Notes: generated by a model from the sequence alone, not told the origin. A stretch of 64,000 nucleotides of DNA from Escherichia coli (GCF_044647545.1 NZ_CP172818.1); one strand, 5' to 3'. Positions 4,235-55,424 are shown, counted from the stretch's first letter. Numbers and translations are program-made.

Positions 4235-4249
4235 TCAACAGAGGTTGCT

Positions 4250-5071: not shown

Positions 5072-5084
5072 AGCGGGAAGCATT

Positions 5085-5183: not shown

Positions 5184-5208
5184 ATAGACGCACACTTTAC
5201 TGCCTCTT

Positions 5209-6455: not shown

Positions 6456-6512
6456 TAGCCACATCCTTGCTAAATAAAAAACGGGCGGTAATACCACCGC
6501 CCGCTTGCTGAA

Positions 6513-10324: not shown

Positions 10325-10573
10325 GTAAACGCAACGGATGGCTTACCGATGCGGGGTTTGTGGTTAACCACCTTGGTGACTCTTAATGAGGGCGGTAATT
10401 CTACGGCAAACCGCTTGAATCGCCAATCTTTGTTGTGAATTACTGGCTTAGCTTTATATTCATTAAGGTAATGCTGATAAATATTCCCGCTTGCAGGGGT
10501 AAAAGTGACCTGACGCAATATTTGTCTTTTCTTGCTTCTTAATAATGTTGTCACAAAAAGTGAGGGTGACTAC

Positions 10574-19027: not shown

Positions 19028-19681
19028 TTAATCTGTCGCGTCTCGCCATTCGCCATTGGCAAGATTATCCAAAGAGTAATCACCCATCGCATAGCGAATC
19101 AGTCGCAGCGTGGGGAAACCAACATGGGCGGTCATGCGGCGCACCTGGCGATTACGTCCTTCATATAAGGTGATCTTCAGCCAGCTGGTGGGAATACTTT
19201 TGCGTTCACGAATTGGTGGATTCCGCGGCCATAACCACGCGGGTTCGTCAACCAGCTCTACGCCTGCGGGCAGGGTAGGGCCATCATTTAAGGTTACGCC
19301 ATTGCGCAAGGCTTCAAGTGCGTCTTGTGTGGGAATACCTTCCACCTGCACATAATAGATTTTTCCGGTGCGTTTACCCGGCTGGGTTAAACGCGCCTGC
19401 AACGCGCCGTTATTGGTCAGCACCAGTAACCCTTCGCTATCGCGGTCAAGACGACCTGCTGCATAAACGCCCTGAACCGGGATGAATTCTTTTAATGTTT
19501 TGCGTCCGGCTTCATCGGTGAACTGCGGAAGAACATCGTAGGGTTTATTGAACAGGATCACACGCGTGGGCTGGTTTTCAGGTTTACGCTTAGTGGAGTG
19601 TTGCGAGTTTAGTCGACTAACCTGTTTTTTTCTAAAAGAAGTTTTTTGCATGGTATTTTCAGAGATTATGAATTGCCGCAT
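19028..19681 (-). CDS. rluE: 23S rRNA pseudouridine synthase RluE
   Basis: 217-aa ORF of the RsuA/RluE family with basic N-terminus. Confidence 0.85.
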
Positions 19682-19852
19682 TATAGCCTAATAACGCGCA
19701 TCTTTCATGACGGCAAACAATAGGGTAGTATTGACAAGCCAATTACAAATCATTAACAAAAAATTGCTCTAAAGCATCCGTATCGCAGGACGCAAACGCA
19801 TATGCAACGTGGTGGCAGACGAGCAAACCAGTAGCGCTCGAAGGAGAGGTGA

Positions 19853-21103
19853 ATGGAAAGTAAAGTAGTTGTTCCGGCACAAGGCAAGAAGATCACCCTG
19901 CAAAACGGCAAACTCAACGTTCCTGAAAATCCGATTATCCCTTACATTGAAGGTGATGGAATCGGTGTAGATGTAACCCCAGCCATGCTGAAAGTGGTCG
20001 ACGCTGCAGTCGAGAAAGCCTATAAAGGCGAGCGTAAAATCTCCTGGATGGAAATTTACACCGGTGAAAAATCCACACAGGTTTATGGTCAGGATGTCTG
20101 GCTACCTGCTGAAACCCTTGATCTGATTCGTGAATATCGCGTTGCCATCAAAGGCCCGCTGACCACTCCGGTTGGTGGTGGTATTCGCTCTCTCAACGTT
20201 GCTCTGCGCCAGGAACTGGATCTCTACATCTGCCTGCGTCCGGTACGTTACTATCAGGGCACTCCAAGCCCGGTTAAACACCCTGAACTGACCGATATGG
20301 TTATCTTCCGTGAAAACTCGGAAGACATTTATGCGGGTATCGAATGGAAAGCAGACTCTGCCGACGCTGAGAAAGTGATTAAATTCCTGCGTGAAGAGAT
20401 GGGCGTGAAGAAAATTCGCTTCCCGGAACATTGCGGCATCGGTATTAAGCCGTGTTCTGAAGAAGGCACCAAACGTCTGGTTCGTGCAGCGATCGAATAC
20501 GCAATTGCTAACGATCGTGACTCTGTGACCCTGGTGCACAAAGGCAACATCATGAAGTTCACCGAAGGCGCGTTTAAAGACTGGGGCTACCAGCTGGCGC
20601 GTGAAGAGTTTGGCGGTGAACTGATCGACGGCGGCCCGTGGCTGAAAGTTAAAAACCCGAACACCGGCAAAGAGATCGTCATTAAAGACGTGATTGCTGA
20701 TGCATTCCTGCAACAGATCCTGCTGCGTCCGGCTGAATATGATGTTATCGCCTGTATGAACCTGAACGGTGACTACATTTCTGACGCCCTGGCAGCGCAG
20801 GTTGGCGGTATCGGTATCGCCCCTGGCGCAAACATCGGTGACGAATGCGCCCTGTTTGAAGCCACCCACGGTACTGCGCCGAAATATGCCGGTCAGGACA
20901 AAGTAAACCCAGGCTCTATTATTCTCTCCGCTGAGATGATGTTACGCCATATGGGCTGGACTGAAGCCGCAGACTTGATTGTTAAAGGTATGGAAGGCGC
21001 AATCAACGCCAAGACTGTAACCTATGACTTCGAACGTCTGATGGAAGGCGCTAAACTGCTGAAATGTTCAGAGTTTGGTGACGCGATCATCAAGAATATG
21101 TAA
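19853..21103 (+). CDS. icd: isocitrate dehydrogenase (NADP)
   Basis: 416-aa ORF; the last ~53 codons lie inside the prophage-borne duplicated segment. Confidence 0.95.
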
Positions 21104-21154
21104 TTACTACATGTGTTAAATATTGTAACGGGCGTATAACACGCCCGTTGTTTT
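20943..21154 (+). repeat. attL-side copy of the 212-bp direct duplication (icd 3' end plus terminator)
   Basis: Appears identical to 36118..36329 by visual alignment at a constant offset of 15175 bp. Confidence 0.85.
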
Positions 21155-21156
21155 TT
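21127..21156 (+). terminator. rho-independent terminator of icd
   Basis: Stem aacgggcg / cgcccgtt with 7-nt loop followed by TTTTTT. Confidence 0.8.
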
Positions 21157-21518
21157 GTTAGGCTGCTAACGGTTATCAAAATTTTATCAAAAAAAGTTAT
21201 CAAAACCCCTCGGTAGTTTTGGGGTAGGCTGGCCGGTCAGGTGGTAGTTCTACTACTAGTCTCCCACATAGATATTCCTTAGCTTTTTATTATTGCTGGC
21301 GGACGCTCGTTAATATTTAAGGTCTTCATTGATTAAGACATCCCCAAAGTTAGTTATGTATTCACTGTTATTAGGACAATTATGAATTACCACTCCTTAC
21401 ACCCGCTCAAATATTGTTAAATTGCCGGTTTTGTATCAACTACTCACCCGGGACTCGCCAGGGGACAGCCAACAGGCATTGGGTGCAATCACCTTAGCGT
21501 TCAGGTACATGCGGAATG

Positions 21519-21543
21519 TAAAAAAGGCCGCGAGCGCGGCCCC
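21519..21543 (-). terminator. rho-independent terminator downstream of ymfD
   Basis: Minus strand: GGCCGCGCTCGCGGCC hairpin followed by TTTTTT, 55 nt beyond the ymfD stop. Confidence 0.65.
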
Positions 21544-21596
21544 TTCACATACATCTTTAGTACTGAGACTGTTTAACCTAGGGAATTATTATCGTA

Positions 21597-22262
21597 TTAT
21601 ATTGCATTACAACTCCCAACAGTGACATATGAACTTCCTGCTTTACTCCACGACTTTAATATTTCAAGGCCATGTGAAGAACATATTTCTTGCACTGCGA
21701 GTTCATCGAGTAATCCATAGTAAGAAACACTTTTTGAATTTTTGTAAATGTATCCGTAAAGATGTTTTCTTCCTGTTTCGTATTTTTTGAAGTATGAGCT
21801 TTTATATTGATTTACAATAAGAGTCTCACCTCCTGATTTTAGTAATCTCTTGATGCTAAGAACTATTTTGTCGATTGTATCCCGACAAGGAACGGCAGAG
21901 AGAACATTAGAGCAAAGGATGAAATCGTAACCCCCAATTATTTTGTCGACATCCTCGAAAGCAACTGTATTTGCATTTTTATAATATCGTGGGACATAGT
22001 CAATAATTTTAGTTTTAATTCCTCTAATAATTTGCTCTCTTTCAAGTTGCCTTTTCGAGTCTAGAAAAGTAACTTCATCAAATTTACTGATTAATTCATC
22101 AGAATATCTAAGTTTTCCGCAGCCAAAATCAAGGGCGTGGCCATTTTTCTCAATGCTTCTAATATACTCGCAAAGATATCTAGAGGGCATCGTATGAGGT
22201 TTTGCTGCATTCTCTGAGCGAATATTAACTCCGTGCATATTATAGTTCAAAGCAAGTACCAT
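21597..22262 (-). CDS. ymfD: putative SAM-dependent methyltransferase (prophage cargo)
   Basis: 221-aa ORF; class I MTase motif I LDFGCGK; AT-rich codon usage; start abuts the ymfE stop. Confidence 0.75.
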   Translation of the reverse strand: MVLALNYNMHGVNIRSENAAKPHTMPSRYLCEYIRSIEKNGHALDFGCGKLRYSDELISKFDEVTFLDSKRQLEREQIIRGIKTKIIDYVPRYYKNANTVAFEDVDKIIGGYDFILCSNVLSAVPCRDTIDKIVLSIKRLLKSGGETLIVNQYKSSYFKKYETGRKHLYGYIYKNSKSVSYYGLLDELAVQEICSSHGLEILKSWSKAGSSYVTVGSCNAI

Positions 22263-22976
22263 TCAATTAATGTTATTTTTAGTGAAAAATTCTTTTATTT
22301 TATCGTCCGGGATTTTTCCGACTTGACTTTCAGTTCTGGGCTTAACTGTCAAAGCAAAGATAATACCACTCACTGAGAATGATAAAATTACAAAAAAGAA
22401 TAAAGACAGCAAAGAACCTTCAACATGAAAAATATCCATTTGTTTGCAAAAAAAGATTATTAGGAAGGAAATTAATGCAATTATCGAAAATTCAAAAAAT
22501 ATCCAAAAATAGTATACTTTATTCCAGAAGAGTTCAATATAATGTTTGTCTTCAATTTTTCTTACTTCAGGGTAATATAGATTGCTCATTACATTGTGAG
22601 CTTCATCTTTATTTAATTTTCTGTTGACTCCAGCTCTCCGTGATAACGGTTTTATAATTAGATGCTTATCCCAAAGATATCGCACCCGAAGTAGTTTGGC
22701 TGCATTGTTATGTAGGTCTAACGCACCGCTAATTAAATATGCAAAAATCGCAAAAGCACAAGGTAATATACCAAAAGATAGTGCCCAATTAATAAAGCTC
22801 TCATGATCTTTAATAGGTGGGACATACTTGGTTGGTAATGTTATTAAAGGGATGTATTCGTAAATAACTAGAAGTATGCAATATATTAGCGTATTTAAGA
22901 AAGTTGCTTTATGAAGTTTAGGCAACATTTCATTATAATTTTTGGGGGGTTCGAACATATTATTCACCTGAGTCAC
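22263..22976 (-). CDS. ymfE: multi-pass membrane protein (prophage cargo)
   Basis: 237-aa ORF with about 4 predicted hydrophobic helices; very AT-rich; first gene of a two-gene minus-strand operon with ymfD. Confidence 0.7.
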   Translation of the reverse strand: MTQVNNMFEPPKNYNEMLPKLHKATFLNTLIYCILLVIYEYIPLITLPTKYVPPIKDHESFINWALSFGILPCAFAIFAYLISGALDLHNNAAKLLRVRYLWDKHLIIKPLSRRAGVNRKLNKDEAHNVMSNLYYPEVRKIEDKHYIELFWNKVYYFWIFFEFSIIALISFLIIFFCKQMDIFHVEGSLLSLFFFVILSFSVSGIIFALTVKPRTESQVGKIPDDKIKEFFTKNNIN

Positions 22977-23162
22977 GCTTTAGGATAGTGTAATGGTAAT
23001 ATTTAATTAAGTGTCATTATATACTTTTCAGTAGGTTAGTTACAATTTTTTGTATCTGTTCAGGCTGACCTAGCTTCGCTGACAGACAATATTGTGATCA
23101 GTAGCACGTATCGAGGAGGAGTAGCGCTACAAATTTGACGCTGGGTGAGAATCTGAAATTGA

Positions 23163-23234
23163 TAGAAATGAAATAATGAAATAATGAAATGATGAAATGA
23201 TGAAATGATGAAATGATGAAATGATGAAATGATG
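23163..23234. repeat. tandem octamer repeat: (AAATAATG)x2 then (AAATGATG)x6
   Basis: Directly readable perfect 8-bp tandem array in the divergent intergenic region between ymfE and lit. Confidence 0.9.
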
Positions 23235-23424
23235 ACAGAGTGTCCAGTGGGCACGGATGGTGTCTTACGACATGCTTACCTTAATCGTTCCCAGTGTGCC
23301 TATAGCAGATATTCTAAACATGTCGATAATTCATTACGCATATAGTATCGAACATAGAAAAAACTGAAGATTCATCTTATTTTGTATATACTACCTAGCC
23401 CAACAATGTAGAGGTTAACGAAAA

Positions 23425-24318
23425 ATGCGCTCACCAATTTGTCATCTTTTCTCAGCAATTAATTCATCACCATTTAAGATTGCACCAGAGAAGGAGCAAG
23501 ATCTTAAAACGATAGTTGACGACAAAAAAATTATAATTTCAGTTGTGAGTGAACCTGGTTTTAATATCCGAGTCAGGAAGAATGAGAGTAATAATTCACA
23601 TGAAATAGTTCTAACAGTAGCTTCACTTGAATATATTTGGGCATTTTCCAATTTCTTTTGGGTTTTTACGCAAGAGTACTCCAAATCTCAGAAAAATAAT
23701 GATGAGCACTTTGATTTAACAGGAAAAAATAGGCTTAAAAAGTCTGATGAACTTCTTAAATGGGCAAGGAAAAACTTGCAAACAACAGGTTGCGAATCAT
23801 GGCCTAAAAAATGTCCCAAGCCAGAAGCATATTTACAAGGAAGCGAAGACTCACAAGTTGCTAGCGAGATATTTCTTTGTGCTATTGCTTGGATTCTTCA
23901 TCATGAAATAAGTCATGTTGTTTTACAGCATCCATTGGTCACTACAGCATTCTCCACTCAAGAGGAGCGTGAAGCAGATTCACATGCTACAAAATGGATA
24001 TTAGGCAACCTGTATGAATCCGCTCCTGAATTAAAGAAACGTGCACTTGGCATTGCTACGGCAGTGCTTTGTATACAAAGCTTAGAAGTTGAAAATTACT
24101 TCTGTTTACAAAATACACACCCAGCTGCATATGAGCGTATATATTCGAATATTTCATGCTACCCTGTCGGAAATGAAGAGTTGATTGAAGCTCTATGTAC
24201 AGTGATGCTTCAATATCTTTTCCATGGCAAAAATATCAATGTGAATCTAGATGGGGAGTCCTTTTCATCGATTTTAGGTGATCTTCTCTGTGATATTTCA
24301 CGTCTTACCAGTAACTGA
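23425..24318 (+). CDS. lit: Lit cell-death zinc metalloprotease (phage-exclusion protease targeting EF-Tu)
   Basis: 297-aa ORF with HEXXH motif in ILHHEISHVVLQH; AT-rich. Confidence 0.85.
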   Translation: MRSPICHLFSAINSSPFKIAPEKEQDLKTIVDDKKIIISVVSEPGFNIRVRKNESNNSHEIVLTVASLEYIWAFSNFFWVFTQEYSKSQKNNDEHFDLTGKNRLKKSDELLKWARKNLQTTGCESWPKKCPKPEAYLQGSEDSQVASEIFLCAIAWILHHEISHVVLQHPLVTTAFSTQEEREADSHATKWILGNLYESAPELKKRALGIATAVLCIQSLEVENYFCLQNTHPAAYERIYSNISCYPVGNEELIEALCTVMLQYLFHGKNINVNLDGESFSSILGDLLCDISRLTSN

Positions 24319-24408
24319 TATGGCTGTCCGCCGCTCGCTTAAAGTGGACTTTTTAGTTTTTATCATGTGCGGTGAGAAATTCAATGTGGCGTTGAGATGC
24401 TTAAAGGT

Positions 24409-25536
24409 TCACAACGCTACTTTGCTCCATCCTTTACCTCGATCATCATGATAACGATCGGTTTGTTGTTGTGTTTTATGACCAAGTAGTTTTTGTGTGT
24501 CTAACCCCTGTTCTTTATACAGACGTTCAGATAAAGACCTTTGCTCATGGAATGTCGCAGGTGAACCCTCTCCCCAGTCAATTCTTGCTAAATCTCTCGC
24601 TTTACTAAAATTCATCGTCAATGTATTGGCTTTAACCTGCGCTCCGCGCTCTGCTTGTGAAGTTGAACGAAAAAAATGCACTAAGTATGCACTGACTGCA
24701 TAGTCACGGCAGCGGGCTACTACATCGCGTAAACTCCAGTTAATCGCATTGAGGCGAAGAGAAAGAGGAATTGCGATTTTGCTCCCGGTCTTTTCCTGAA
24801 TGACATGAAGATGATCATCCCAAATATCGCTAAATTTCATACGCGAAATATCACCTAACCGCTGACCAGTAACCAGCGCTAACAGCATGGCATTTCCCAT
24901 GTAACGATGAGTAGCGTCTGCGATATCGAAGATTTTTTTCCATTCTTCAAGGCTCAGCCGTTGTCGGGTAATTTTTCTTCTTGGTTGTTTAGTGGCTAAT
25001 GCTGGGTTATAGCCAGGAGGTACTTCTCCGTAGTGCTGCGCCTCTTTGAAAACATCAATCAGGACGGAGCGAACTACTTGTGCCATTCTTGGCCGCCCAG
25101 CGGCGATATACTCATCAAGCAATTGTGCTATATCTCTGACATCAACGGCTGAGATCAACTTCATTCCTGCTCGTTCTCTGAGCAAGGATACTGGTTTAGC
25201 TTTTTGTTTATAGGTGTTGAGTCTTATATCACCACTTTTAAGCCTGTCATCCTGGATCGCTTGATAGCGATCTAACCAGGTTGACGTTGTGATAGCCTTT
25301 CCTTTGCTGGTTGCGATCCTGTCACTGATAGCCAGAATCTGCCGGGTTCTTTGTTCAGCCAGGCGAGTGTTGGCCTCAGTGGCAATAGCGATAGCTTCAG
25401 CTTCGTTTGTTCCCAAAGCATGGAATTTTCCTGTCACTGGATGCTTATACCGCCAATAGACTTTATTTACCTTCCTACTATAAAGCGGATATAAGTTAGG
25501 GACTGAAACATTATTCTTACGCGGTCTGGCTGCCAT
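24409..25536 (-). CDS. intE: tyrosine integrase
   Basis: 375-aa ORF; C-terminal catalytic region with R..HxxR..Y (LLGHKTQQQTDRYHDD). Confidence 0.9.
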   Translation of the reverse strand: MAARPRKNNVSVPNLYPLYSRKVNKVYWRYKHPVTGKFHALGTNEAEAIAIATEANTRLAEQRTRQILAISDRIATSKGKAITTSTWLDRYQAIQDDRLKSGDIRLNTYKQKAKPVSLLRERAGMKLISAVDVRDIAQLLDEYIAAGRPRMAQVVRSVLIDVFKEAQHYGEVPPGYNPALATKQPRRKITRQRLSLEEWKKIFDIADATHRYMGNAMLLALVTGQRLGDISRMKFSDIWDDHLHVIQEKTGSKIAIPLSLRLNAINWSLRDVVARCRDYAVSAYLVHFFRSTSQAERGAQVKANTLTMNFSKARDLARIDWGEGSPATFHEQRSLSERLYKEQGLDTQKLLGHKTQQQTDRYHDDRGKGWSKVAL

Positions 25537-25762
25537 TACTCAAAATCCGTTGCAAAAGTAATGAGTCATTTTTCTTGATTACAGGTGTTACCAACTCCCC
25601 AACTAACTCGGCGTCCTCACGCACTCGCCATAACCGGCCTTGTTTCATGGCCGGTGGACAAAATAAATTCTGCTTAGCATAACGACGCAATGTGGACACA
25701 CTTGGAGGATTACTTCTGTATTTTTCAGCAGCCCATTCTTCAAGAGTTAACATTTGAAGCAT
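25517..25762 (-). CDS. xisE: excisionase (AlpA/Xis-like HTH)
   Basis: 81-aa ORF overlapping the int start; typical int-xis arrangement. Confidence 0.8.
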   Translation of the reverse strand: MLQMLTLEEWAAEKYRSNPPSVSTLRRYAKQNLFCPPAMKQGRLWRVREDAELVGELVTPVIKKNDSLLLQRILSNGSQTA

Positions 25763-26228
25763 ATGCGATCACCTTATTACTACACTAACTGCTTAGTCTC
25801 ATCATATCGACCCTGCAAGGCCGATTAGTTTCTCCACAAAACAGAGAAGAACACCTGCGGCGGCAGCCGCCCGGATGGATTGGGTTATGAGCCCGTCGTC
25901 CGGTGATGCTCTTCTCTGTTTTGTAAAAAGGACGGTACCAGCCTGAAGCAAGGGTACAAACTGGTACCGCCAGGACTACACACAGCATAAAGTTGTGGTG
26001 CCGGGTGCCTCCCGGTGCCTGGCGAAGGTTGCACACCAGACGGGTGGGTATCCACAGAAGGTCGACTGTCAGCCTCAACCTTAACCCGCGTGCGCTGAGC
26101 CGCATTCACCACAACGCTAAGGATTCTCTTTGGTTGAAAATACTTAGCTGTTATGTGCCTGTCTTTTCACCACTTCAGGCTCGGTGGTATGCTGGAGTTC
26201 TCACACAGCCAGCAAGCAAGGAAACTTA

Positions 26229-26570
26229 ATGAACCAGTTTTATGTTCACGTTCGTCTATTTGAAGACACAGCCGAACAGACCAAAAAATTTGAAGAATTA
26301 ATGCTTAACTTTCTGTACCAGAAAACAGTTAAAGAGTCTGACGATAGCTGCTGCAGACTGATTCCAGAGGGATATATCCTCAAAAGTACAATGAACTGCC
26401 AACAAATCCTTGATCAAACATTTTCAATTGCTAACAGTGCCGGTGTTGACGCAAATATATTTGTCTGTAAATTTGAACAAAGCGCATGCTTACTTCCGTC
26501 TGCTTCCTTAGTTGGTAACGATTTCGTTCATTACGATCTTACGCCTAAGCCCATCAAGCTCGATTCTTAA
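26229..26570 (+). CDS. ymfI: prophage protein of unknown function
   Basis: Start MNQFYVHVRLF gives 113 aa; no recognisable motif. Confidence 0.55.
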   Translation: MNQFYVHVRLFEDTAEQTKKFEELMLNFLYQKTVKESDDSCCRLIPEGYILKSTMNCQQILDQTFSIANSAGVDANIFVCKFEQSACLLPSASLVGNDFVHYDLTPKPIKLDS

Positions 26571-26816
26571 AGCCTTAACCATTGTGTCGTGATAAACACG
26601 GCTCACCTTCTCTCCATTGCATGGCAGAGGGGTGAGTGTGTTAGCCATGAAATTCATGAACTCGGTTCGACCAGGGGCTTGCGCCCCGCAAGTCTTTAAT
26701 GCCTGTTTTGCTAACAAAATGCGGGCCTCAGTGCCTGCATTTGGCTCTATCTGCTGCAAACGTTTAGCGTCTTCCAGCAACAATGCGATCACATGCTTCA
26801 AATTCTGCTCATTCAT
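26508..26816 (-). CDS. ymfJ: prophage protein of unknown function
   Basis: 102-aa ORF downstream of a strong promoter-like element. Confidence 0.6.
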   Translation of the reverse strand: MNEQNLKHVIALLLEDAKRLQQIEPNAGTEARILLAKQALKTCGAQAPGRTEFMNFMANTLTPLPCNGEKVSRVYHDTMVKALRIELDGLRRKIVMNEIVTN

Positions 26817-26922
26817 CTATTCTCTCCACTGAAATCATCCGCTAACGAATCATCCCGGTCTTCGTACGTACCGGGCGGGCTACTTCGTGGGCGTCCTGCC
26901 TGTTTGTTGTTTCTCTTGGGTA

Positions 26923-26951
26923 CATTATGTATCTCAAAGGTACATTGTCAA
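26923..26951 (-). promoter_or_regulatory. sigma70-like promoter for ymfJ with overlapping GTACC operator half-sites
   Basis: Minus strand TTGACA, 17-nt spacer, ATAATG; tGTACC motifs overlap both hexamers. Confidence 0.5.
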
Positions 26952-26952
26952 G

Positions 26953-26978
26953 TATAAAAAAACCTGCCGAAGCAGGTT
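26953..26978 (-). terminator. rho-independent terminator of cohE
   Basis: Minus strand AACCTGC-ttcg-GCAGGTT followed by TTTTTTT, 13 nt after the cohE stop. Confidence 0.75.
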
Positions 26979-26990
26979 CATAAACATTGA

Positions 26991-27665
26991 TTAGGCTTTG
27001 ATTTTGTATCTTCTTGGTTTTCCTGAGAAAATCACAGTACCAATTATAGAGCAATTACCGTTGATCTTAATGTAAGGCTCAGGCCAGTTTGGGTTTAACG
27101 CTTTGAGATAACGCTGTGTCCCATCTTCTATCAACCTTTTGAAGGTGGTTTCACCTGTATCGTGCATCAATGCAATAACGTCGTCACCGTGGCAGGCAGG
27201 TACTTCAGGATCGACAAAAATCATGTCTCCCGGGCGGTACTCATCAATCATTGAATCACCTATTACCCGCAAGATATAAGTCATTTCCCCACAGGGTACA
27301 GGGCAGGGATACGTTTCTGCTGTGCTCAAATCAACCTCAGAATATCCAACTTCTTTCCATGCTCCGGCCTGTACCCATGATATGACAGGGACTAATGTGA
27401 TTTGTTTATTAGTGATTGAAACATCAGGTTTTTTTGTGATGTTCGTTGTCTGGTGTTCTTGATCGAGCCATCCTACAGGCAGGTCGAAACATTTTTCGAT
27501 GTGTCGTGCCATGCTGTCACCGATATTTTTAGTAGCACCATCTCCCATAAACCTGCTGGTCTGGGTTGGCTCGCGATCAATCATAGTGGCAAAGGAAGAA
27601 TTCCCGCCAACACCATCTCTCAGTTTTCTGGCGTTAGACCGCCGGATGTCATGGATTGTTTTCAT
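26991..27665 (-). CDS. cohE: CI-like prophage repressor (HTH plus LexA-type S24 peptidase domain)
   Basis: 224-aa ORF; C-terminal VIGDSMIDEYRPGDMIFVDPE self-cleavage domain; divergent from cro-like gene. Confidence 0.85.
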   Translation of the reverse strand: MKTIHDIRRSNARKLRDGVGGNSSFATMIDREPTQTSRFMGDGATKNIGDSMARHIEKCFDLPVGWLDQEHQTTNITKKPDVSITNKQITLVPVISWVQAGAWKEVGYSEVDLSTAETYPCPVPCGEMTYILRVIGDSMIDEYRPGDMIFVDPEVPACHGDDVIALMHDTGETTFKRLIEDGTQRYLKALNPNWPEPYIKINGNCSIIGTVIFSGKPRRYKIKA

Positions 27666-27680
27666 AACGAAATTAAAACC

Positions 27681-27701
27681 CTTGTACCGTTAAGGTACAA
27701 G
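27681..27701. promoter_or_regulatory. operator palindrome CTTGTACC-gttaa-GGTACAAG between cohE and croE
   Basis: Perfect 8-bp inverted repeat with 5-bp spacer; related half-sites ATGTACACC/GGTACAT at 27731..27750. Confidence 0.6.
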
Positions 27702-27705
27702 TATC

Positions 27706-27734
27706 TTGAAGGTTCATTTCAATCATGTAATATG
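27706..27734 (+). promoter_or_regulatory. candidate croE promoter
   Basis: TTGAAG, 16-17 nt spacer, TAATAT, then GGAGG SD at 27741..27745. Confidence 0.4.
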
Positions 27735-27755
27735 TACACCGGAGGTACATATTGT

Positions 27756-27956
27756 ATGAAAGCGTATTGGGACTCTTTAACCAAAGAACAGCAGGGCGAG
27801 TTGGCCGGAAAAGTTGGCTCAACACCTGGCTACTTACGGCTGGTTTTCAATGGCTATAAAAAAGCCAGTTTTGTGCTGGCTAAAAAACTTGAGCAATACA
27901 CATCAGGTGCAATTACGAAATCTGACTTAAGACCGGATATCTATCCGAAAGATTAG
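27756..27956 (+). CDS. croE: Cro-like regulator
   Basis: ATG 27756 (MKAYWDSLTKEQQ) gives 66 aa; GGAGG 11 nt upstream; divergent from cohE. Confidence 0.75.
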   Translation: MKAYWDSLTKEQQGELAGKVGSTPGYLRLVFNGYKKASFVLAKKLEQYTSGAITKSDLRPDIYPKD

Positions 27957-27987
27957 CAGAACACTTTCAATTTTTAACCACAGAACG

Positions 27988-28554
27988 ATGAGGCTAATCG
28001 TGGGTAAGCATCACTGGAAAATAGAAAAACAGCCTGAGTGGTACGTGAAAGCTGTCAGAAAAACTATCGCGGCGTTGCCGAGTGGTTACGCTGAAGCGGC
28101 TGACTGGCTCGATGTAACAGAAAACGCTTTATTCAACCGCCTTCGTGCAGATGGCGATCAGATTTTCCCGCTGGGATGGGCAATGGTTTTACAGCGTGCT
28201 GGTGGCACTCACTTCATTGCTGATGCTGTGGCGCAGTCTGCAAATGGCGTCTTTGTGTCTCTTCCTGACGTCGAGGATGTGGACAACGCCGATATTAACC
28301 AGCGTCTGCTGGAAGTCATTGAACAGATCGGCAGTTATTCAAAACAGATTCGTTCAGCAATCGAAGACGGTGTAGTGGAACCGCATGAGAAGACAGCAAT
28401 TAACGACGAGCTGTATCTCTCAATTTCGAAGCTGCAGGAGCATGCAGCACTTGTCTACAAAATTTTTTGCATTTCAGAAAGTAACGCCCGCGAGTGTGCA
28501 GCTCCGGGCGTCGTGGCGTCGATTGCTTCTGGTTGTGGAGAAACTAACGCATGA
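27988..28554 (+). CDS. ymfL: prophage regulatory protein (CII-like family)
   Basis: 188-aa ORF immediately downstream of croE, early-region position. Confidence 0.6.
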
Positions 28555-28889
28555 ACAGTTTAACAACACACTACCGTCGCTCGCAACTGATTGCACTTCC
28601 TGTACCGGGTGGAAAAGCGAAGGTGGAGTATTGCTATGCAGTGAATGTACCAGGTGACAGGGAAATTGTAACCCACAGCTTTGCAGAGTGGGCTGTGGGT
28701 GATTTCAACCGGCAGAAGGAGACAGTCCTTTGCGACAAGTTAACCGCTGGTTCAAAGATCACTACGGAGTGCCCGTCAGAGTCATTCGTTGGGAGCCGGA
28801 AACACAACGGGTTATCTACCTCCGTGAAGGCTATGAACATGAATGCTTCAGTCCGGTCGAACAGTTTCGTCGTAAATTCAGGGAAATAG
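28551..28889 (+). CDS. ymfM: prophage protein of unknown function
   Basis: 112-aa ORF overlapping the ymfL stop. Confidence 0.55.
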
Positions 28890-28898
28890 AGGTCGGTC

Positions 28899-30266
28899 AT
28901 GAGCACTAAATTAACCGGCTATGTATGGGATGGTTGCGCTGCATCAGGCATGAAGTTATCCAGCGTGGCAATTATGGCCCGCCTGGCTGATTTCAGTAAT
29001 GACGAAGGTGTGTGCTGGCCATCAATTGAAACCATTGCCCGTCAGATTGGCGCGGGGATGAGTACCGTCAGAACGGCTATCGCACGGCTGGAAGCAGAAG
29101 GCTGGTTAACGCGTAAGGCGCGTCGCCAGGGTGATGGTTCATCACCCCACTGTGCGGTGGTGGATGAATATCACGAGCACGCCACCGATGCGCTTTATAC
29201 CACGATGCTTACCGGGATGGGGGCGCGACGTCAGCCACTGATGTGGGCCATCACCACCGCCGGGTACAACATTGAGGGGCCGTGCTACGACAAGCGGCGG
29301 GAAGTTATCGAGATGCTCAACGGTTCGGTACCCAACGATGAACTGTTCGGGATCATCTATACCGTTGACGAAGGCGATGACTGGACCGACCCGCAGGTGC
29401 TGGAAAAAGCCAACCCGAATATTGGCGTGTCGGTTTATCGCGAATTTTTGTTAAGTCAGCAGCAGCGTGCGAAAAATAACGCCCGTCTGGCAAACGTCTT
29501 TAAAACAAAACACCTCAATATCTGGGTGTCGGCGCGTTCGGCGTATTTCAACCTGGTGAGCTGGCAGAGCTGCGAGGATAAATCACTGACCCTTGAGCAG
29601 TTCGAGGGGCAGCCGTGCATTCTGGCCTTTGACCTGGCGCGTAAGCTGGATATGAACAGCATGGCGCGACTTTATACCCGCGAGATTGACGGTAAAACGC
29701 ATTACTACAGTGTGGCCCCGCGTTTCTGGGTACCGTATGACACGGTGTACAGCGTCGAGAAAAATGAAGATCGCCGGACAGCCGAACGCTTTCAGAAATG
29801 GGTGGAAATGGGCGTTCTGACTGTTACCGCTGGTGCGGAGGTGGATTATCGCTACATCCTCGAGGAGGCCAAAGCGGCGAACAAAATCAGCCCGGTCAGT
29901 GAGTCACCCATCGACCCCTTCGGGGCGACCGGGCTGTCGCATGACCTTGCTGATGAAGACCTGAACCCCATCACCATCATTCAGAACTACACCAACATGT
30001 CCGATCCGATGAAAGAGCTGGAAGCGGCGATTGAATCGGGGCGCTTTCATCATGACGGCAATCCCATCATGACCTGGTGTATCGGCAACGTGGTCGGCAA
30101 AACCATTCCGGGTAACGATGATGTGGTGAAGCCTGTCAAGGAGCAGGCGGAAAACAAAATCGATGGTGCGGTTGCACTGATTATGGCGATTGGCAGAGCA
30201 ATGCTGTACGAGAAAGAAGACACGCTGTCTGACCACATTGAGTCCTATGGGATCCGCTCGCTTTAA
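28899..30266 (+). CDS. oweE: fusion ORF: replication-initiator-like winged-helix N-terminus joined to terminase large-subunit C-terminal region
   Basis: 455-aa ORF; N-terminal roughly 90 aa resemble phage replication initiators, the remainder resembles a terminase large subunit C-terminal domain. Confidence 0.65.
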
Positions 30267-30277
30267 CTGAGGTAATT

Positions 30278-30445
30278 ATGATCATGCTGATTCTCCGCCT
30301 CTGGTGGGCGGCGGTGCTTTTGCTGGCGTATGGTGCCGCTCATTTATCCCCCGGGGGTTTTGTTCCCGGGGCGTTGTGCCTGTTCTGGTCGTTGCTGGTG
30401 GCGCGAATCTGTTCGACACAGTCGTCTGTCGGCGGAGGTAAATAG
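30278..30445 (+). CDS. ymfR: small hydrophobic membrane peptide (55 aa)
   Basis: ATG 30278 to TAG 30445, below the ORF-track cut-off; two hydrophobic stretches ([33 protein letters not shown]). Confidence 0.4.
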
Positions 30446-30651
30446 TGTTCTTTTCGGGATTATTTCAACGAAAAAGCGACGCACCGGTGACCACGCCAGC
30501 AGAGCTGGCGGATGCCATCGGGTTGTCCTACGACACCTATACCGGAAAGCAGATCAGCAGCCAGCGGGCCATGCGACTGACGGCGGTTTTTTCCTGTGTC
30601 AGGGTGCTGGCAGAGTCGGTCGGGATGTTGCCTGCAATCTGTATCACCTGA
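30445..30651 (+). pseudogene. beeE: portal protein N-terminal fragment
   Basis: 68-aa ORF with portal-like N-terminus; downstream region has no continuous frame. Confidence 0.45.
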
Positions 30652-30841
30652 ACGGCAGCCTGAAACAGAGAGCCACGGCGAGCGTCTGCATAGCTGATCT
30701 CCACGCATCCCAATGGCTATATGACGCCGCAGGAGTTCTGGGAGCTGGTGGTCACCTGTCTGTGCCTGCGGGAAACTTTTACGCCTACAAAGTGAAAGCA
30801 TTTGGCGAAGTGGCTGAAACTGCTGCCCGTCGATCCCGGCT

Positions 30842-31633
30842 GTGTGGTATATGCGCTGGGAAGGTGTCAGCGATGGCCTGAAGGTGACCGCCGGGAGTGT
30901 TATTCAGCGCGATGACCTGGTGCAGTACACGACAACTGACGATGCAACCAGCTCCGGTGGTGTCCTGCGCGTGCCGATCACTTGCTCAACTACAGGCGCG
31001 GTCGGTAACGCTGACGACGGTACGGCATTAATCCTGGTCACGCCGGTGAATGGTCTGCCGTCTTCCGGTGTTGCAGATACCCTGACTGGCGGATTTGATA
31101 CTGAAGAGCTGGAAACGTGGCGCGCCCGCGTCATTGAGCGGTATTACTGGACGCCTCAGGGCGGGGCTGACGGGGACTATGTCGTCTGGGCTAAAGAAGT
31201 GTCAGGCATTACCCGTGCATGGACATACCGCCACTGGATGGGAACGGGGACTGTCGGTGTGATGATTGCCAGCAGTGACCTGATTAATCCCATTCCGGAA
31301 GAATCAACGGAAACGGCGGCAAGACAACACATTGAGCCACTGGCCCCGGTGGCAGGCTCTGATTTGTATGTATTCAGGCCGGTGGCGCATAAAGTGGATT
31401 TTCATATCCGCGTGACGCCGGACACACCGGAAATACGGGCTGCCATCACCGCGGAGTTGCGTTCGTTCCTGCTGCGTGATGGTTATCCGCAGGGAGAACT
31501 GAAGGTATCGCGTATCAGTGAGGCGATTTCCGGTGCGAACGGGGAATACAGCCATCAGTTGCTTGCACCGGCAGACAATATCTCCATTGCAAAAAATGAA
31601 CTGGCGGTTCTGGGGACGATTTCATGGACGTGA
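30842..31633 (+). CDS. jayE: baseplate J-like protein (possibly truncated)
   Basis: 263-aa ORF resembling the C-terminal portion of Mu gp47/P2 J baseplate proteins; precedes gp48-like gene. Confidence 0.6.
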
Positions 31634-32208
31634 CAAACGATGATTACATCCGCCTGTTATCGGCACTGTTGCCGCCCGGTCCTGCATGGTCAGCCAGCGA
31701 TCCGGCGATTGCCGGTGCGGCACCTTCATTAACCCGCGTTCATCAGCGTGCGGATGCCCTGATGCGGGAGCTGGATCCGCGCACCACCACTGAACTGATA
31801 AACCGCTGGGAGCGTCTGTGCGGTCTGCCGGATGAATGTATTCCCGCAGGGACACAGACCCTTCGCCAGCGTCAGCAACGGCTGGATGCGAAGGTTAATC
31901 TGGCGGGCGGCATCAATGAGGATTTTTACCTTGCACAGCTTGCTGCCCTGGGCAGACCAGACGCCACTATCACGCGATACGATAAAAGCACGTTCACCTG
32001 CTCATCGGCCTGTACTGACGCAGTGAATGCGCCGGAATGGCGGTATTACTGGCAGGTCAACATGCCAGCCGCCACCAACACCACCTGGATGACATGTGGC
32101 GATCCCTGTGATTCCGCACTGCGTATCTGGGGCGACACCGTTGTCGAGTGCGTGCTTAACAAACTCTGCCCTTCGCATACCTACGTAATTTTTAAATATC
32201 CGGAGTAA
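31624..32208 (+). CDS. ymfQ: tail protein (P2 I / Mu gp48-like)
   Basis: 194-aa ORF overlapping the jayE end and followed by the tail-fibre gene. Confidence 0.6.
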
Positions 32209-32211
32209 TCC

Positions 32212-32841
32212 ATGCATCGTATAGACACGAAAACCGCGCAGAAGGATAAGTTCGGCGCGGGTAAGAACGGTTTTACCCGTGGTAACCCCCAGACCGGCAC
32301 ACCTGCCACCGATCTGGATGATGACTACTTTGACATGTTGCAGGAAGAACTTTGTAGCGTGGTGGAGGCCTCCGGTGCCAGCCTGGAGAAAGGGCGGCAT
32401 GACCAGATGCTTACCGCACTTCGTGCGCTGCTGTTAAGCCGCAAGAATCCGTTTGGCGATATCAAATCGGATGGCACTGTGCAAACGGCTCTCGAAAACC
32501 TTAGTTTAGGAGAAGGAGCAAAACTCAATGCAGCAACGGCTACATTAGGACGCACCGGTTTCATAGCTATACCGGTTATGATTGGTGGTATTGAGCAATC
32601 AGTAATCATTCAGTGGGGGTGGAATGCCGCAAAAGCATCTGCCTCTGGGGGGGATGGAAATACAGTTGTATTCCCGGTTGCGTTTAATAATGCCTGTGTT
32701 GCCGTTGTTGCAAATTATGACAATGTCAGCGCACCTATCAATGCAGTGGCAACGGGGGGATATACAACCACTTCGTTTTTATTACGGTGCGCAGCTCAAA
32801 CGGGTAGTTATTACTATAACTGGATTGCTATTGGGTATTAA
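32212..32841 (+). CDS. stfP: side tail fibre protein (constant part plus currently expressed variable part)
   Basis: 209-aa ORF; Gly/Ala/Thr-rich fibre-like C-terminus; crossover site lies inside the ORF at 32489..32514. Confidence 0.7.
   Translation: MHRIDTKTAQKDKFGAGKNGFTRGNPQTGTPATDLDDDYFDMLQEELCSVVEASGASLEKGRHDQMLTALRALLLSRKNPFGDIKSDGTVQTALENLSLGEGAKLNAATATLGRTGFIAIPVMIGGIEQSVIIQWGWNAAKASASGGDGNTVVFPVAFNNACVAVVANYDNVSAPINAVATGGYTTTSFLLRCAAQTGSYYYNWIAIGY
32489..32514 (+). other. Gin/Hin/Pin-type 26-bp recombination site (left)
   Basis: CTCTCGAAAACC-TT-AGTTTAGGAGAA fits the half-site pattern TTnTCnnAAACC / GGTTTnnGAGAA. Confidence 0.7.
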
Positions 32842-32842
32842 G

Positions 32843-33319
32843 ATGAAAATATACTGTTGCTTAAATACCGTTGGTTTTTTTATGGATGGCTGTGGCGTCA
32901 TTCCGCCAGATTCTAAAGAAATAACGGCAGAACACTGGCAGTCATTATTAAAATCTCAAGCTGAAGGAGGCGTGATCGATTTTTCTGTTTTTCCTCCTTC
33001 TATTAAAGAGGTTATCCGTACTCATGATGATGAAGTCGCAGATGCGAACTTTCAAAAGCAGATGCTTATCTCTGATGCAACTGATTTTATCAATAGCAGA
33101 CAGTGGCAGGGTAAGGCTGCATTGGGAAGACTTAAAGAAGATGAGCTGAAACAATCTGATTTGTGGGCTGGATTATCTGGACGCACTGGCGCTGGTCGAT
33201 ACCGCCAGTGCGCCGGATCTGAATGGCCTACGCCTCCGGCAGTTCAGGCCAGTAAATATCCGGTACAGTGCTGGTATCCGTTGCCATCACCGCGTCAATG
33301 TAATCCAGCACGGCGTTAA
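32843..33319 (+). CDS. tfaP: tail fibre assembly protein
   Basis: ATG 32843 (MKIYCC) 2 nt after stfP; WPTPP motif near the C-terminus; the frame stays open to 33319 (158 aa) and overlaps convergent tfaE, so the true stop is uncertain. Confidence 0.55.
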   Translation: MKIYCCLNTVGFFMDGCGVIPPDSKEITAEHWQSLLKSQAEGGVIDFSVFPPSIKEVIRTHDDEVADANFQKQMLISDATDFINSRQWQGKAALGRLKEDELKQSDLWAGLSGRTGAGRYRQCAGSEWPTPPAVQASKYPVQCWYPLPSPRQCNPARR

Positions 33320-33830
33320 GTCGGGTGTTTTCTGTCTGCGTCAGCTTCCTCCCGGCCTGCAATTTCAGTTGAATCAGACTAATTGAAGCCATTGCAGTAT
33401 CAATCAGTGACTGGCGCTGTGCTTCTGCCGCTTCTATTGCGGCACCGTATTGTGCCTCGGTATCGGTTACCCATTTCTCACCATCCCATTTATCGTATGG
33501 TGTTAACGGAGCGATAGTGGTCATATTTTCAGGGTAATCCCCTGGCGCTGTGATTTCTTTTGGTTCTCCCGTTTCGGTGCTATAAACAATTTCACCGCGA
33601 TGGTCTGGCACATATTTCCACGAGTTCAAATCCGTTGAGCGGCAAATTGCATAACCCGTTTTATGTGTACCAGGTGCATCTAAACAAGAACATGCCGGGA
33701 TACCGACACCGACAGCAAGATATTCGGTTGATGTTGAGATATATTCCTGTGTCCCATTATCATAGTTATAAACGGTAATATCCCCTGCCTTTACCGCGAT
33801 CAGCGCATCATTTAATACAGCTCCACCCAT
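33228..33830 (-). CDS. tfaE: tail fibre assembly protein (alternate orientation)
   Basis: 200-aa ORF ending in the canonical Tfa motif DIYWPELPEA. Confidence 0.75.
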   Translation of the reverse strand: MGGAVLNDALIAVKAGDITVYNYDNGTQEYISTSTEYLAVGVGIPACSCLDAPGTHKTGYAICRSTDLNSWKYVPDHRGEIVYSTETGEPKEITAPGDYPENMTTIAPLTPYDKWDGEKWVTDTEAQYGAAIEAAEAQRQSLIDTAMASISLIQLKLQAGRKLTQTENTRLNAVLDYIDAVMATDTSTVPDIYWPELPEA

Positions 33831-34390
33831 TATGCAGCCCTCACGATATAATTAAATGAAATATTTCGTGGACGTGATTCGTTACCGAATTTATCTGAAC
33901 CATCAGTATTTCTCGCTGAATATGTTTGGAGGATTGTCCCTGATGATGGATTCGCATTATATTCATTTGTTCCTGCTGGATAGTATGACATTGCACTATT
34001 GTCATCTTTGAAAACAGCAGACATCAATCCATCACCACCACTTCCGTAAGCAGTTGTAAGAAATGACGGTGATCGAAAGAAAGACTATTTTGTGCCGAAA
34101 GTAAGGGAACGACCAGAATCTACCCCGCGCCCATCATCCCAGCCACGAATAAACTCACCACGTAAATCAGGCAATTTATTTGTCGGGTAAGCCTTCGCCA
34201 GTTTTGGATATTCAACGGCAGAAAAAGCCGCACCGTTGCATTTCAGCCAGCCAGTAGGCGGTGTGGCTGAAGGCCACGGAACAGGCACACCAACGGGTAA
34301 TGCCGAACCTTCTCCCAAACCAAGGTTTATGAAAATGCGGAATAAGCGGCAAATGGCATCATTCCTGCTTTTGTCAGGGAGAGCTACCAT
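33830..34390 (-). pseudogene. stfE: alternate tail-fibre variable segment with in-frame TAG
   Basis: Two same-frame ORFs (34085..34390 and 33830..34027) separated by an amber codon at 34085..34087; N-terminal part carries a tail-collar-like motif (PVGVPVPWPSATPPTGWLKCNG...LPDLRGEFIRGWDDGRG). Confidence 0.6.
34308..34333 (-). other. Gin/Hin/Pin-type 26-bp recombination site (right, inverted)
   Basis: Minus strand TTTTCATAAACC-TT-GGTTTGGGAGAA; same TT core as the left site; adjacent to pin. Confidence 0.7.
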
Positions 34391-34941
34391 GCTTATTGGC
34401 TATGTATGTGTGTCAACAAATGACCGAAACACAAATCTACAGCGTAATGCGCTGAACTGTGCAGGATGCGACTCATTTTTGAAGACAAGATAAGCGGTAC
34501 AAAGTCTGAAAGGCCGGGACTGAAAAAACTGCTCAGGACATTATCGGCAGGTGACACGCTGGTGGTCTGGAAACTGGACCGGCTGGGGCGTAGTATGCGG
34601 CATCTGGTCATTCTGGTTGAGGAGTTGCGCGAACGTGGCGTTAATTTTCGCAGCCTAACAGATGCTATTGATATCAGCACATTCGATGGGGCGTTTTTCT
34701 TTATGTGATGGGGGCCTTGGCTGAAATTGAGCGTGAACTGATTGTTGAACGAACAAAAGCTGGACTGGAAACTGCTCGTGCACAGGGACGAATTGGTGGA
34801 CGTCGTCCCAAACTTACACCAGAACAATGGGCACAAGCTGGACGATTAATTGCAGCAGGAACTCCTCGCCAGAAGGTGGCGATTATCTATGATGTTGGTG
34901 TGTCAACTTTGTATAAGAGGTTTCCTGCAGGGGATAAATAA
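34389..34941 (+). pseudogene. pinE: serine invertase Pin disrupted by two frameshifts
   Basis: Resolvase/invertase sequence spread over three frames: 34389..34493 (MLIGYVCVSTNDRNTNLQRNALNCAGC), 34466..34708 (GDTLVVWKLDRLGRSM) and 34705..34941 (C-terminal HTH); total span 553 bp is two bases short of a 555-bp intact frame. Confidence 0.7.
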
Positions 34942-35047
34942 AGTTAAAGACACTTTGTGTACAAAAGAAAGTAAAACAACAGCAACTTGTTGCAATTTTA
35001 TCAATAAAAGTAGTATTGTCGTGAAAAATTGATTAAAGATTAATATT

Positions 35048-35881
35048 ATGCATGTTTTTGATAATAATGGAATTGAACTGAAAGCTGAGTGTTCGATAGG
35101 TGAAGAGGATGGTGTTTATGGTCTAATCCTTGAGTCGTGGGGGCCGGGTGACAGAAACAAAGATTACAATATCGCTCTTGATTATATCATTGAACGGTTG
35201 GTTGATTCTGGTGTATCCCAAGTCGTAGTATATCTGGCGTCATCATCAGTCAGAAAACATATGCATTCTTTGGATGAAAGAAAAATCCATCCTGGTGAAT
35301 ATTTTACTTTGATTGGTAATAGCCCCCGCGATATACGCTTGAAGATGTGTGGTTATCAGGCTTATTTTAGTCGTACGGGGAGAAAGGAAATTCCTTCCGG
35401 CAATAGAACGAAACGAATATTGATAAATGTTCCAGGTATTTATAGTGACAGTTTTTGGGCGTCTATAATACGTGGAGAACTATCAGAGCTTTCACAGCCT
35501 ACAGATGATGAATCGCTTCTGAATATGAGGGTTAGTAAATTAATTAAGAAAACGTTGAGTCAACCCGAGGGCTCCAGGAAACCAGTTGAGGTAGAAAGAC
35601 TACAAAAAGTTTATGTCCGAGACCCGATGGTAAAAGCTTGGATTTTACAGCAAAGTAAAGGTATATGTGAAAACTGTGGTAAAAATGCTCCGTTTTATTT
35701 AAATGATGGAAACCCATATTTGGAAGTACATCATGTAATTCCCCTGTCTTCAGGTGGTGCTGATACAACAGATAACTGTGTTGCCCTTTGTCCGAATTGC
35801 CATAGAGAATTGCACTATAGTAAAAATGCAAAAGAACTAATCGAGATGCTTTACGTTAATATAAACCGATTACAGAAATAA
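35048..35881 (+). CDS. mcrA: HNH endonuclease McrA (restriction of modified DNA)
   Basis: 277-aa ORF; C-terminal HNH motif HHVIPLSSGGADTTDNCVALCPNCHRELH; AT-rich. Confidence 0.85.
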   Translation: MHVFDNNGIELKAECSIGEEDGVYGLILESWGPGDRNKDYNIALDYIIERLVDSGVSQVVVYLASSSVRKHMHSLDERKIHPGEYFTLIGNSPRDIRLKMCGYQAYFSRTGRKEIPSGNRTKRILINVPGIYSDSFWASIIRGELSELSQPTDDESLLNMRVSKLIKKTLSQPEGSRKPVEVERLQKVYVRDPMVKAWILQQSKGICENCGKNAPFYLNDGNPYLEVHHVIPLSSGGADTTDNCVALCPNCHRELHYSKNAKELIEMLYVNINRLQK

Positions 35882-36117
35882 AATTATTTATTAAAGTCAC
35901 ATTTAAGACGTAATACCCTACAGGGTAAAAATTTTCTCTGATCTTAACTTCTGCAAATGTTAACTGCTATTTTTATGCTAAAAATGGTTATCAAAACTCA
36001 AAAACACATGTTTATAATCAATGAGTTATAGAAATGCTAAGGGCTAATGAGTTATATGCAAATTAGTAAAATTATGTTGCTATGTCAGATAGTTACGATT
36101 TAGTCATCTAACTAATG

Positions 36118-36278
36118 TACGCCATATGGGCTGGACTGAAGCCGCAGACTTGATTGTTAAAGGTATGGAAGGCGCAATCAACGCCAAGACTGTAACCTAT
36201 GACTTCGAACGTCTGATGGAAGGCGCTAAACTGCTGAAATGTTCAGAGTTTGGTGACGCGATCATCAAGAATATGTAA
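36118..36278 (+). pseudogene. icdC: icd 3' fragment (last ~53 codons) left at attR
   Basis: Sequence appears identical to icd 20943..21103 but has no upstream coding continuation. Confidence 0.8.
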
Positions 36279-55092: not shown

Positions 55093-55424
55093 AATCATTC
55101 GCCTCTTTAAATATATAAATTGTAATGAAACTCCTGTTTTACAACTATTAAAGAATTTTACTTCATCTAATTCATAGTTAGCCGGGCGGGATGCGTCAAT
55201 GTCTTTATTTCTATTAATATGATAAATATCAAACAATGTTTAATGTCATTATGGCTGATGCTTCTATTCTATTTTTTAGCCGGGTGATATTTTTCATTTC
55301 TGCTGGATGAGCGTCGTCGCCAGAAGGCGCGTGAGCACAGGATAAGAGAACGAAAAATCAGCAGTCTATGCAGCGACAAATATTGATAGCCTGAATCAGT
55401 ATTGATCTGCTGGTAAGAACAGAC

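Follow-up and report, generated by a model that had tools for sequence, protein, structure and literature searches.

A pinE invertase gene distributed over three reading frames in an e14-type cryptic prophage of Escherichia coli

Pin-type invertases bind a pair of crossover sites in inverted orientation and, assisted by Fis bound to an enhancer, cause the intervening segment to invert, as is established for the Hin/Gin family (PMC3798978). In Escherichia coli K-12, the P segment of the e14 prophage has been reported to act as a recombinase-switched defence against phage T2 (PMC12529663). That segment can be inverted by PinQ of prophage Qin, with inversion creating StfE2 and so blocking T2 adsorption (Kirigo et al., Nucleic Acids Res 2025, PMC12529663). 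In the case of Hin, the Fis-bound recombinational enhancer is located ~100 bp from hix (PMC3798978). As for the active site of serine recombinases, the R8A, R8K and Q14R variants of Tn3 resolvase show no recombination in vivo, with cleavage rates of at most 0.0002 and 0.016 of that of the parent (PMC2794168).

The window considered here, namely the whole stretch of 64 kb of DNA that was analysed, corresponds to the E. coli chromosome from lolC to dadX, with the K-12 proteins LolC to DadX all being found in collinear order. An e14-type cryptic prophage is inserted in icd, giving the following arrangement.

~21155..36115: e14-type cryptic prophage, inserted in icd
19853-21100: icd, intact, left of e14
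36117-36275: icdC, the displaced 3' end of icd, right of e14
35048..35881, plus strand: mcrA, 277 aa, 100% identical to K-12, in the K-12-identical right end of e14

Within the prophage, the order of the genes is that of K-12 (ymfD, ymfE, lit, intE, xisE ... ymfQ, stfP/ycfK, tfaP, tfaE, stfE, pin, mcrA), with collinearity extending from ymfD to icdC. The products of intE, xisE, lit, ymfD, ymfE and mcrA share 99.6-100% identity with their K-12 counterparts, and terminase and portal are present as remnants, as in K-12. The chromosomal genes of the window are all intact, K-12-collinear in order and free of IS insertions. Strain ECONIH1 presents almost the same backbone, with ~1 SNP in ~46 kb outside the junction edges (99.99-100% identity), and lacks e14 at its icd site. 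Given the absence of IS insertions, the K-12 gene order, this backbone identity and RefSeq protein names that point to E. coli, an origin from Shigella or some other species was rejected. The prophage itself was matched by searching for an exact copy of the YcfK protein of the window. This revealed a sister sequence, CP092703.1, that shares 98.9% identity over 20.6 kb, an alignment that includes the tail-fibre region that K-12 does not match. The sister carries the same e14 variant with an intact pinE, the product of which is identical to K-12 PinE. That the window is a simulated mutation of the K-12 sequence was ruled out: the differences are mosaic, with 73 of 320 200-nt bins being identical to K-12, those in intact genes concern third-codon positions for the most part, and ECONIH1 has almost the same backbone.

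Several other features of the backbone were noted. ECONIH1 contains a 1.5-kb insert (19645-21131) of two genes (DUF1493 and STM2901 families) between rluE and icd that is absent from the window (19622-19645), and the rluE junction gives the source genome a unique 217-aa RluE N-terminus (WP_400165224.1). The ycgH autotransporter region (44372-45959), the only backbone stretch unmatched to ECONIH1, is K-12-like (99%) and so represents a separate recombination tract. The only Rfam match in the window is the C0299 sRNA (55326-55404, plus strand; RF00119, 107.7 bits).

When window, sister and K-12 were compared three ways, those differences private to the window, namely those unlike both other sequences, were seen to fall in a few patches, at 30250-30700, 33000-33250 and 34250-34750. 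In ymfR (30295-30415), five private deletions (-1, -5, -2, -4 and -3; net -15) leave a 55-aa ORF open, the product of which has no relative at 90% identity or above among ~15 billion proteins. In the portal remnant (30632-30819), five private 1-nt homopolymer indels (30632, 30676, 30692, 30772 and 30819) are found with no substitutions relative to the HS-01 allele. The changes in ymfR and the portal remnant reflect either local decay of an unusual kind or a stretch of low-quality consensus. Elsewhere in e14, a 200-nt patch of ymfH (25800-26010) differs among window, sister and K-12, lies between flanks of 100% identity and splits the gene over two frames; the sister contains a run of N's in this patch. 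Other N's in the sister (aligned to window positions 29258-30107 and 33267-33328) are spaced in multiples of three, as are third-codon polymorphisms, which implies that its reads contained two alleles of the e14 terminase-remnant region, the source being either a paralogous copy or a culture that was mixed. Finally, HS-01 (NZ_CP172817.1) carries a much-reduced e14 (3484-10693) without the left arm and mcrA; the 3' end of its pinE is fused to an icd remnant (189 aa), and its icd is annotated as frameshifted and incomplete.

The switch to which pinE belongs could be delimited in the window as follows.

34310..34335: right 26-bp crossover site, TTCTCCCAAACC AA GGTTTATGAAAA, identical in the sister
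34308-34323: right 16-bp inverted repeat, CCTTCTCCCAAACCAA, with the sequence given in PMC12529663
32490..32515: left crossover site, inside stfP
32501-32516: left 16-bp inverted repeat, TTAGTTTAGGAGAAGG, where K-12 has TTGGTTTGGGAGAAGG
32517..34307: invertible P segment, measuring 1791 bp from repeat to repeat as against 1797 bp in K-12, in the orientation of the K-12 record compared
32212..32841, plus strand: stfP/ycfK tail-fibre gene, 209 aa, intact, 99% identity to K-12, holding the left crossover site
32843..33250, plus strand: tfaP-like tail-fibre assembly gene, with a private +1/-1 pair at ~33165 and 33219
33228..33830, minus strand: tfaE tail-fibre assembly gene, 200 aa, intact, the exact protein being seen only in the source genome
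33830..34390, minus strand: stfE', alternative tail-fibre C-terminal segment, with an in-frame stop (TAA) at 34082-34084

Both crossover sites contain a central AA/TT dinucleotide, and the two are inverted and flank a segment that lies next to the invertase gene. The original prediction had placed the invertible segment at 32489..34333, which proved right to within a few bases. In the P segment, stfP and tfaP on the plus strand and tfaE and stfE' on the minus strand provide alternative tail-fibre C-termini and assembly genes in opposite orientations. Only one orientation of the segment is seen in the window, collinear with the K-12 record. The left and right 16-bp repeats match at 14 of 16 positions, the mismatches being due to two G>A changes in the left copy. 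Both changes distinguish the left repeat from that of K-12 and are common to the sister, where pinE is intact; one adjoins the central crossover dinucleotide.

Towards the 3' end of tfaP, an inserted G (GGG>GGGG, 33165) and a 1-nt deletion (33219), 55 nt apart, shift 18 codons, after which the frame is restored. At the other end of the segment, a private 1-nt deletion at ~34343 disconnects the K-12 start of stfE (ATG 34360-34362, minus strand) from the reading frame, and an upstream ATG at 34390 (minus strand) instead opens a 101-aa ORF. Because the K-12 start of stfE is out of frame and stfE' contains an in-frame stop, it is doubtful that the source strain would generate a StfE2-like product.

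With K-12 PinE as query, a tblastn search of the window returned three collinear segments, corresponding to residues 1-34 (frame +3, 34389-34490), 29-105 (frame +2, 34472-34702) and 104-184 (frame +1, 34696-34938), with a joint E value of 7e-89. The locus had originally been described as a Pin-type serine invertase broken over three frames and spanning 553 bp, 2 bp short of the 555-bp gene. These frames, together with an ORF list that includes both of the stops quoted at the time, bear out the former point, and comparison with K-12 the latter. The pieces are laid out as follows.

34389-34941, plus strand: pinE span, a 553-bp copy of the 555-bp K-12 pinE
34389..34493, plus strand, frame +3: pinE fragment 1, catalytic-domain codons 1-28, changed by R7C, Q13R and D16N, with the catalytic Ser9 codon kept
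34472..34708, plus strand, frame +2: pinE fragment 2, catalytic-domain codons 29 to ~105, with +T at 34682, T6>T5 and T4>T3, ending at TGA 34706-34708
34696..34941, plus strand, frame +1: pinE fragment 3, codons 104-184, which comprise the last part of helix E as well as the HTH_7 DNA-binding domain

The frame +3 translation (34389-34493) reads MLIGYVCVSTNDRNTNLQRNALNCAGCDSFLKTR and then stops; beyond the 1-nt deletion at 34471/2, fragment 1 is out of frame up to TAA 34491-34493. The frame +2 ORF spans 34466-34708, its C-terminal end reading ...DISTFDGAFFFM before the stop, while the frame +1 ORF (34705-34941) opens at a GTG start and encodes the intact C-terminal 78 aa. Once the frames were repaired, the resulting 184-aa translation matched the Pfam Resolvase domain (PF00239, residues 3-135, 3.8e-43) and HTH_7 (PF02796, residues 138-181, 5.5e-14), in other words, the serine recombinase architecture of a Resolvase domain followed by a C-terminal HTH_7. 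Residues 1-181 of the same translation align with the Mu Gin structures 3UJ3 and 4M6F (E 8e-85), and an alignment with the gamma-delta resolvase structure was also obtained. A single uninterrupted frame for both domains is absent, the homology being spread over frames +3, +2 and +1 and interrupted by the stops at 34491-34493 and 34706-34708. NCBIfam offers no dedicated Pin model and gave just sub-threshold matches to other serine recombinases, and a scan for promoters upstream of pin yielded nothing useful. The locus is the known pinE DNA-invertase gene (of the Gin/Hin/Cin/Pin type) of an e14-type cryptic prophage in E. coli icd. As its sequence is written, it reads as a pseudogene of the serine invertase family and would encode no functional member.

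The original prediction had counted two 1-nt deletions. Alignment to the closest alleles instead revealed four indels in the gene (-1, +1, -1 and -1), amounting to a net loss of 2 nt.

34471/2: indel 1, -1 (G)
34682: indel 2, +1 (T)
~34697: indel 3, T6>T5
~34702: indel 4, T4>T3

The catalytic motif reads YVCVSTNDR in place of YVRVSTNDQ, as had been noted from the outset, corresponding to R7C and Q13R (CAG>CGA); D16N is found as well. The codon for the catalytic serine (S10 in Tn3 resolvase, S9 in Gin) is present as Ser9 in YVCVSTND, opposite S10 of gamma-delta resolvase in the alignment. Where gamma-delta/Tn3 resolvase has R8 and Q14, the window has Cys7 and Arg13, such that a conserved active-site arginine and a conserved glutamine are both replaced. 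If the behaviour of the Tn3 variants can be transferred to Pin by homology, then the pinE product would be inactive from R7C and Q13R even without the frameshifts. A functional Pin cannot come from the gene as written, because it combines four frame-disrupting indels with changes at two residues needed in Tn3 resolvase.

Could a full-length invertase nonetheless be generated through two programmed ribosomal frameshifts, or through transcriptional slippage at T runs? Both frame changes need a -1 shift, and the DNA near the junctions is T-rich (CATTTTTGAAG at ~34474-34484 and GCGTTTTTCTTTATG at ~34692-34706). However, neither a canonical X XXY YYZ heptamer nor a conserved structure downstream is present, the arrangement is seen in 0 relatives among 2,466 matching genomes, two sequential shifts of low efficiency would lead to negligible product, and any such product would still contain R7C and Q13R, which are inactivating in the homologous Tn3 resolvase. 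The idea is hardly credible, and programmed frameshifting was rejected on the grounds that there is no slippery heptamer, no relative with this arrangement and no escape from R7C and Q13R.

The distribution of changes along the gene is abrupt. From 34730 to ~36000, a region that includes the last 70 pin codons, the spacer and mcrA, window and K-12 share 100% DNA identity, fragment 3 being identical from 34730 on. In the three-way comparison, 54 columns private to the window were counted in 34250-34750 and 0 in 34750-36000; in the former interval, the sister has none of its own. The foreign stretch can be described in one line.

34338..34729, plus strand: recombinant patch, with 54 alignment columns unlike both sister CP092703.1 and K-12

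This patch covers the N-terminal two thirds of pinE and 50 bp upstream, and is of an allele family unlike that of the rest of the element. Its left edge lies between 34325 and 34337, within the right crossover site, with the window matching the sister up to 34337; at its right edge, the last foreign site is 34729. The original prediction of substitutions clustered in the N-terminal part and a clean C-terminal part holds as description. The contrast between 'clean' C-terminus and changed N-terminal part does not reflect graded decay, and marks a sharp recombination boundary at 34729/34730 between a foreign allele and the K-12-identical block.

This same boundary bears on the suggestion that the 78-aa C-terminal ORF (34705-34941) is kept as a stand-alone DNA-binding protein that acts on the crossover sites and modulates other invertases, an arrangement that would be compatible with either decay or artefact. 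The ORF is open and its HTH_7 domain is intact and identical to that of K-12. This conservation is, however, explained by the 1.3-kb K-12-identical block that includes mcrA, leaving no substitution from which to read selection. Moreover, a simple scan detected no promoter-like site or obvious ribosome-binding context, and the exact 78-aa product is called in no genome of the collection searched. We consider this role very improbable.

The nearest relatives of the patch are truncated 345-nt pin' remnants that adjoin prfC in other E. coli, with 95-96.7% identity over 34340-34731, the upper value being the best found over the patch among complete E. coli genomes. Homology to the remnants stops at pin nt 345, 2 nt beyond the last foreign site of the patch, and the L3Cip3 remnant shares with the window the TGT codon that specifies Cys7. 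K-12-type and remnant-type alleles differ by 20 synonymous and 9 non-synonymous codon changes, which looks like natural allelic divergence. Even relative to the remnants, the patch contains ~15 private changes, including 5-6 indels, two of which are T-run contractions. The patch may have been acquired through homologous recombination or gene conversion, with an already decaying pin copy as donor. Among the sequences sampled, the closest are pin' remnants that break off at nt 345, and R7C is already found in one of them. A prfC-adjacent remnant that could serve as donor is absent from ECONIH1, the backbone relative. Strain BS-04, which probably stems from the same project, also contains a mosaic pinE, with the same right boundary as in the window, and has one pin-like place in its genome; BS-04 shows one C-run indel relative to K-12, and the artefact-like pattern of the window is not seen there. 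A more specific course of events, in which gene conversion with a dead, truncated paralogue as donor (the pin' remnant of another cryptic prophage) inactivated a live invertase gene, with a tract running from the crossover site to the end of remnant homology and with the e14 P-segment switch being frozen in a natural isolate, strikes us as rather unlikely.

Whether these lesions exist in the organism is a separate matter. The original prediction had spoken of an inactivated invertase or a sequencing error, and this pair of options is supported by the four indels, the two active-site changes and the restriction of the lesions to one genome. The frameshifting changes were found in no other sequence among 5,426 complete E. 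coli genomes, phage records, IMG/VR, JGI metagenomes and GTDB representatives; the 80-aa frame-2 product was found in one contig among ~15 billion proteins; and two private motifs were absent from viral, metagenome and species-representative genome collections. We lean towards pinE being truly inactive, that is, towards real decay yielding a pseudogene in the organism. Support comes from the accuracy of the backbone relative to ECONIH1, from the intact chromosomal genes and from the patch being uniformly of one allele type. The in-frame stop in stfE' and the terminase/portal remnants speak for relaxed selection in e14, and a dead pinE fits a prophage that is defective throughout, with its alternative fibre segment broken as well. 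Against real decay, window and sister do not differ elsewhere over many kb, which leaves too little time for ~15 independent mutations in 392 nt, and no sampled sequence that could be the donor carries this exact set of changes.

A local assembly or consensus artefact, with the pinE of the organism being intact as in the sister, or at least unshifted, is a serious contender that we hold to be less probable than not. In the version considered, to which we give the same standing, a paralogous prophage copy confused assembly or polishing at 34338-34729 and in the other private e14 patches, resulting in a chimeric, indel-rich consensus. Consistent with such an artefact, every frameshifting change is unique to one assembly, and the private changes are confined to e14 and not seen in ~46 kb of backbone. 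They are also biased to deletions, often in short homopolymers (the five positions in the portal remnant listed above; T6>T5 and T4>T3 in pin), and some stretches of private indels have no accompanying substitutions. The ymfR variant lacks any relative of at least 90% identity among the ~15 billion proteins searched, the N's of the sister at third-codon sites (29258-30107) and in the ymfH patch point to two alleles piled up in reads of this lineage, and pinE is intact in that sister. Several observations argue the other way. At ~41 sites, the pin patch switches cleanly to one natural allele type, with no mixture, and exact identity at its edges extends over just 13 nt (left) and ~3 nt (right), too short for a k-mer or overlap chimera. 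There are no N's within pin of the sister, and ECONIH1, with the same backbone, is without the prfC-adjacent remnant. The five ymfR deletions sum to -15 and leave the ORF open, a rare outcome of random error, and the mosaic pinE of BS-04, with its same right boundary and single pin-like place, indicates that mosaics occur without a co-resident paralogue.

Assuming real decay, the consequences for the switch can be outlined. Without active Pin, the 1791-bp P segment (stfP-tfaP / tfaE-stfE') would not be invertible by its own enzyme, and would keep the orientation it has now unless inverted in trans by a paralogue, for instance PinQ. Apart from pinE, no invertase homologue that might act in trans was detected by tblastn with K-12 PinE in the 64-kb window.

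Within the first 90 nt of pin, the private changes fall into two small clusters ~45 bp apart, at 34426-34434 and 34471-34474; measured from the middle of the crossover site, they lie at a distance of ~100-150 bp. Judging from the hin, gin and cin enhancers, which lie in the 5' part of the invertase gene, this is presumably the zone of the two Fis sites. A literature search provided no coordinates for the Fis enhancer of e14 pin. Should the private clusters hit Fis sites, inversion by a trans-acting invertase could suffer too.

In terms of annotation, this part of the e14-type cryptic prophage should be entered as a pseudogene of pinE or marked as a potential assembly error. Provided that the sequence is real, the source strain, as a natural isolate in which pinE is dead, a repeat is mutated and stfE' is broken, would be a ready-made loss-of-function variant, useful for asking how often the T2-defence switch persists in the wild. 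The case of pinE also illustrates how recombination with decaying prophage remnants, or mis-assembly from them, gives sharp boundaries between 'mutated' and 'clean' parts of one gene.

The gene, the system and the mode of decay are all already known, and no new system is described here. The closest counterpart is K-12 e14 PinE (b1158; WP_000905001.1), which occupies the same locus with the same neighbours in the same order (stfP, tfaP, tfaE, stfE, pin, mcrA, icdC), is served by the same crossover sites as in the window, and is identical at the DNA level across the C-terminal 70 codons and mcrA. Unlike K-12, the window has N-terminal 114 codons of another allele family, R7C, Q13R and D16N, four indels, two G>A changes in the left inverted repeat and a stop codon in stfE'. 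The pin' remnants (in L3Cip3, FORC_082, 50EVAW, 23CRST011 and others), 345 nt in length and found beside an S24-peptidase fragment next to prfC, are unshifted within those 345 nt, lack the ~15 private changes and lie at another chromosomal locus. With Mu Gin (3UJ3, 4M6F) and the Hin/Cin/Gin/Pin subfamily, the pinE of the window has in common the Resolvase plus HTH_7 architecture, yet differs in having no continuous ORF and in replacement of the catalytic arginine and the conserved glutamine. Lastly, the P-segment switch of Kirigo et al. (PMC12529663) involves the same invertible segment and the same 16-bp repeats within stfP and stfE, whereas the window, as written, has a dead invertase at the locus, a mutated copy of one repeat, an stfE whose 5' end has lost the frame and a stop codon in the variable part of that gene.
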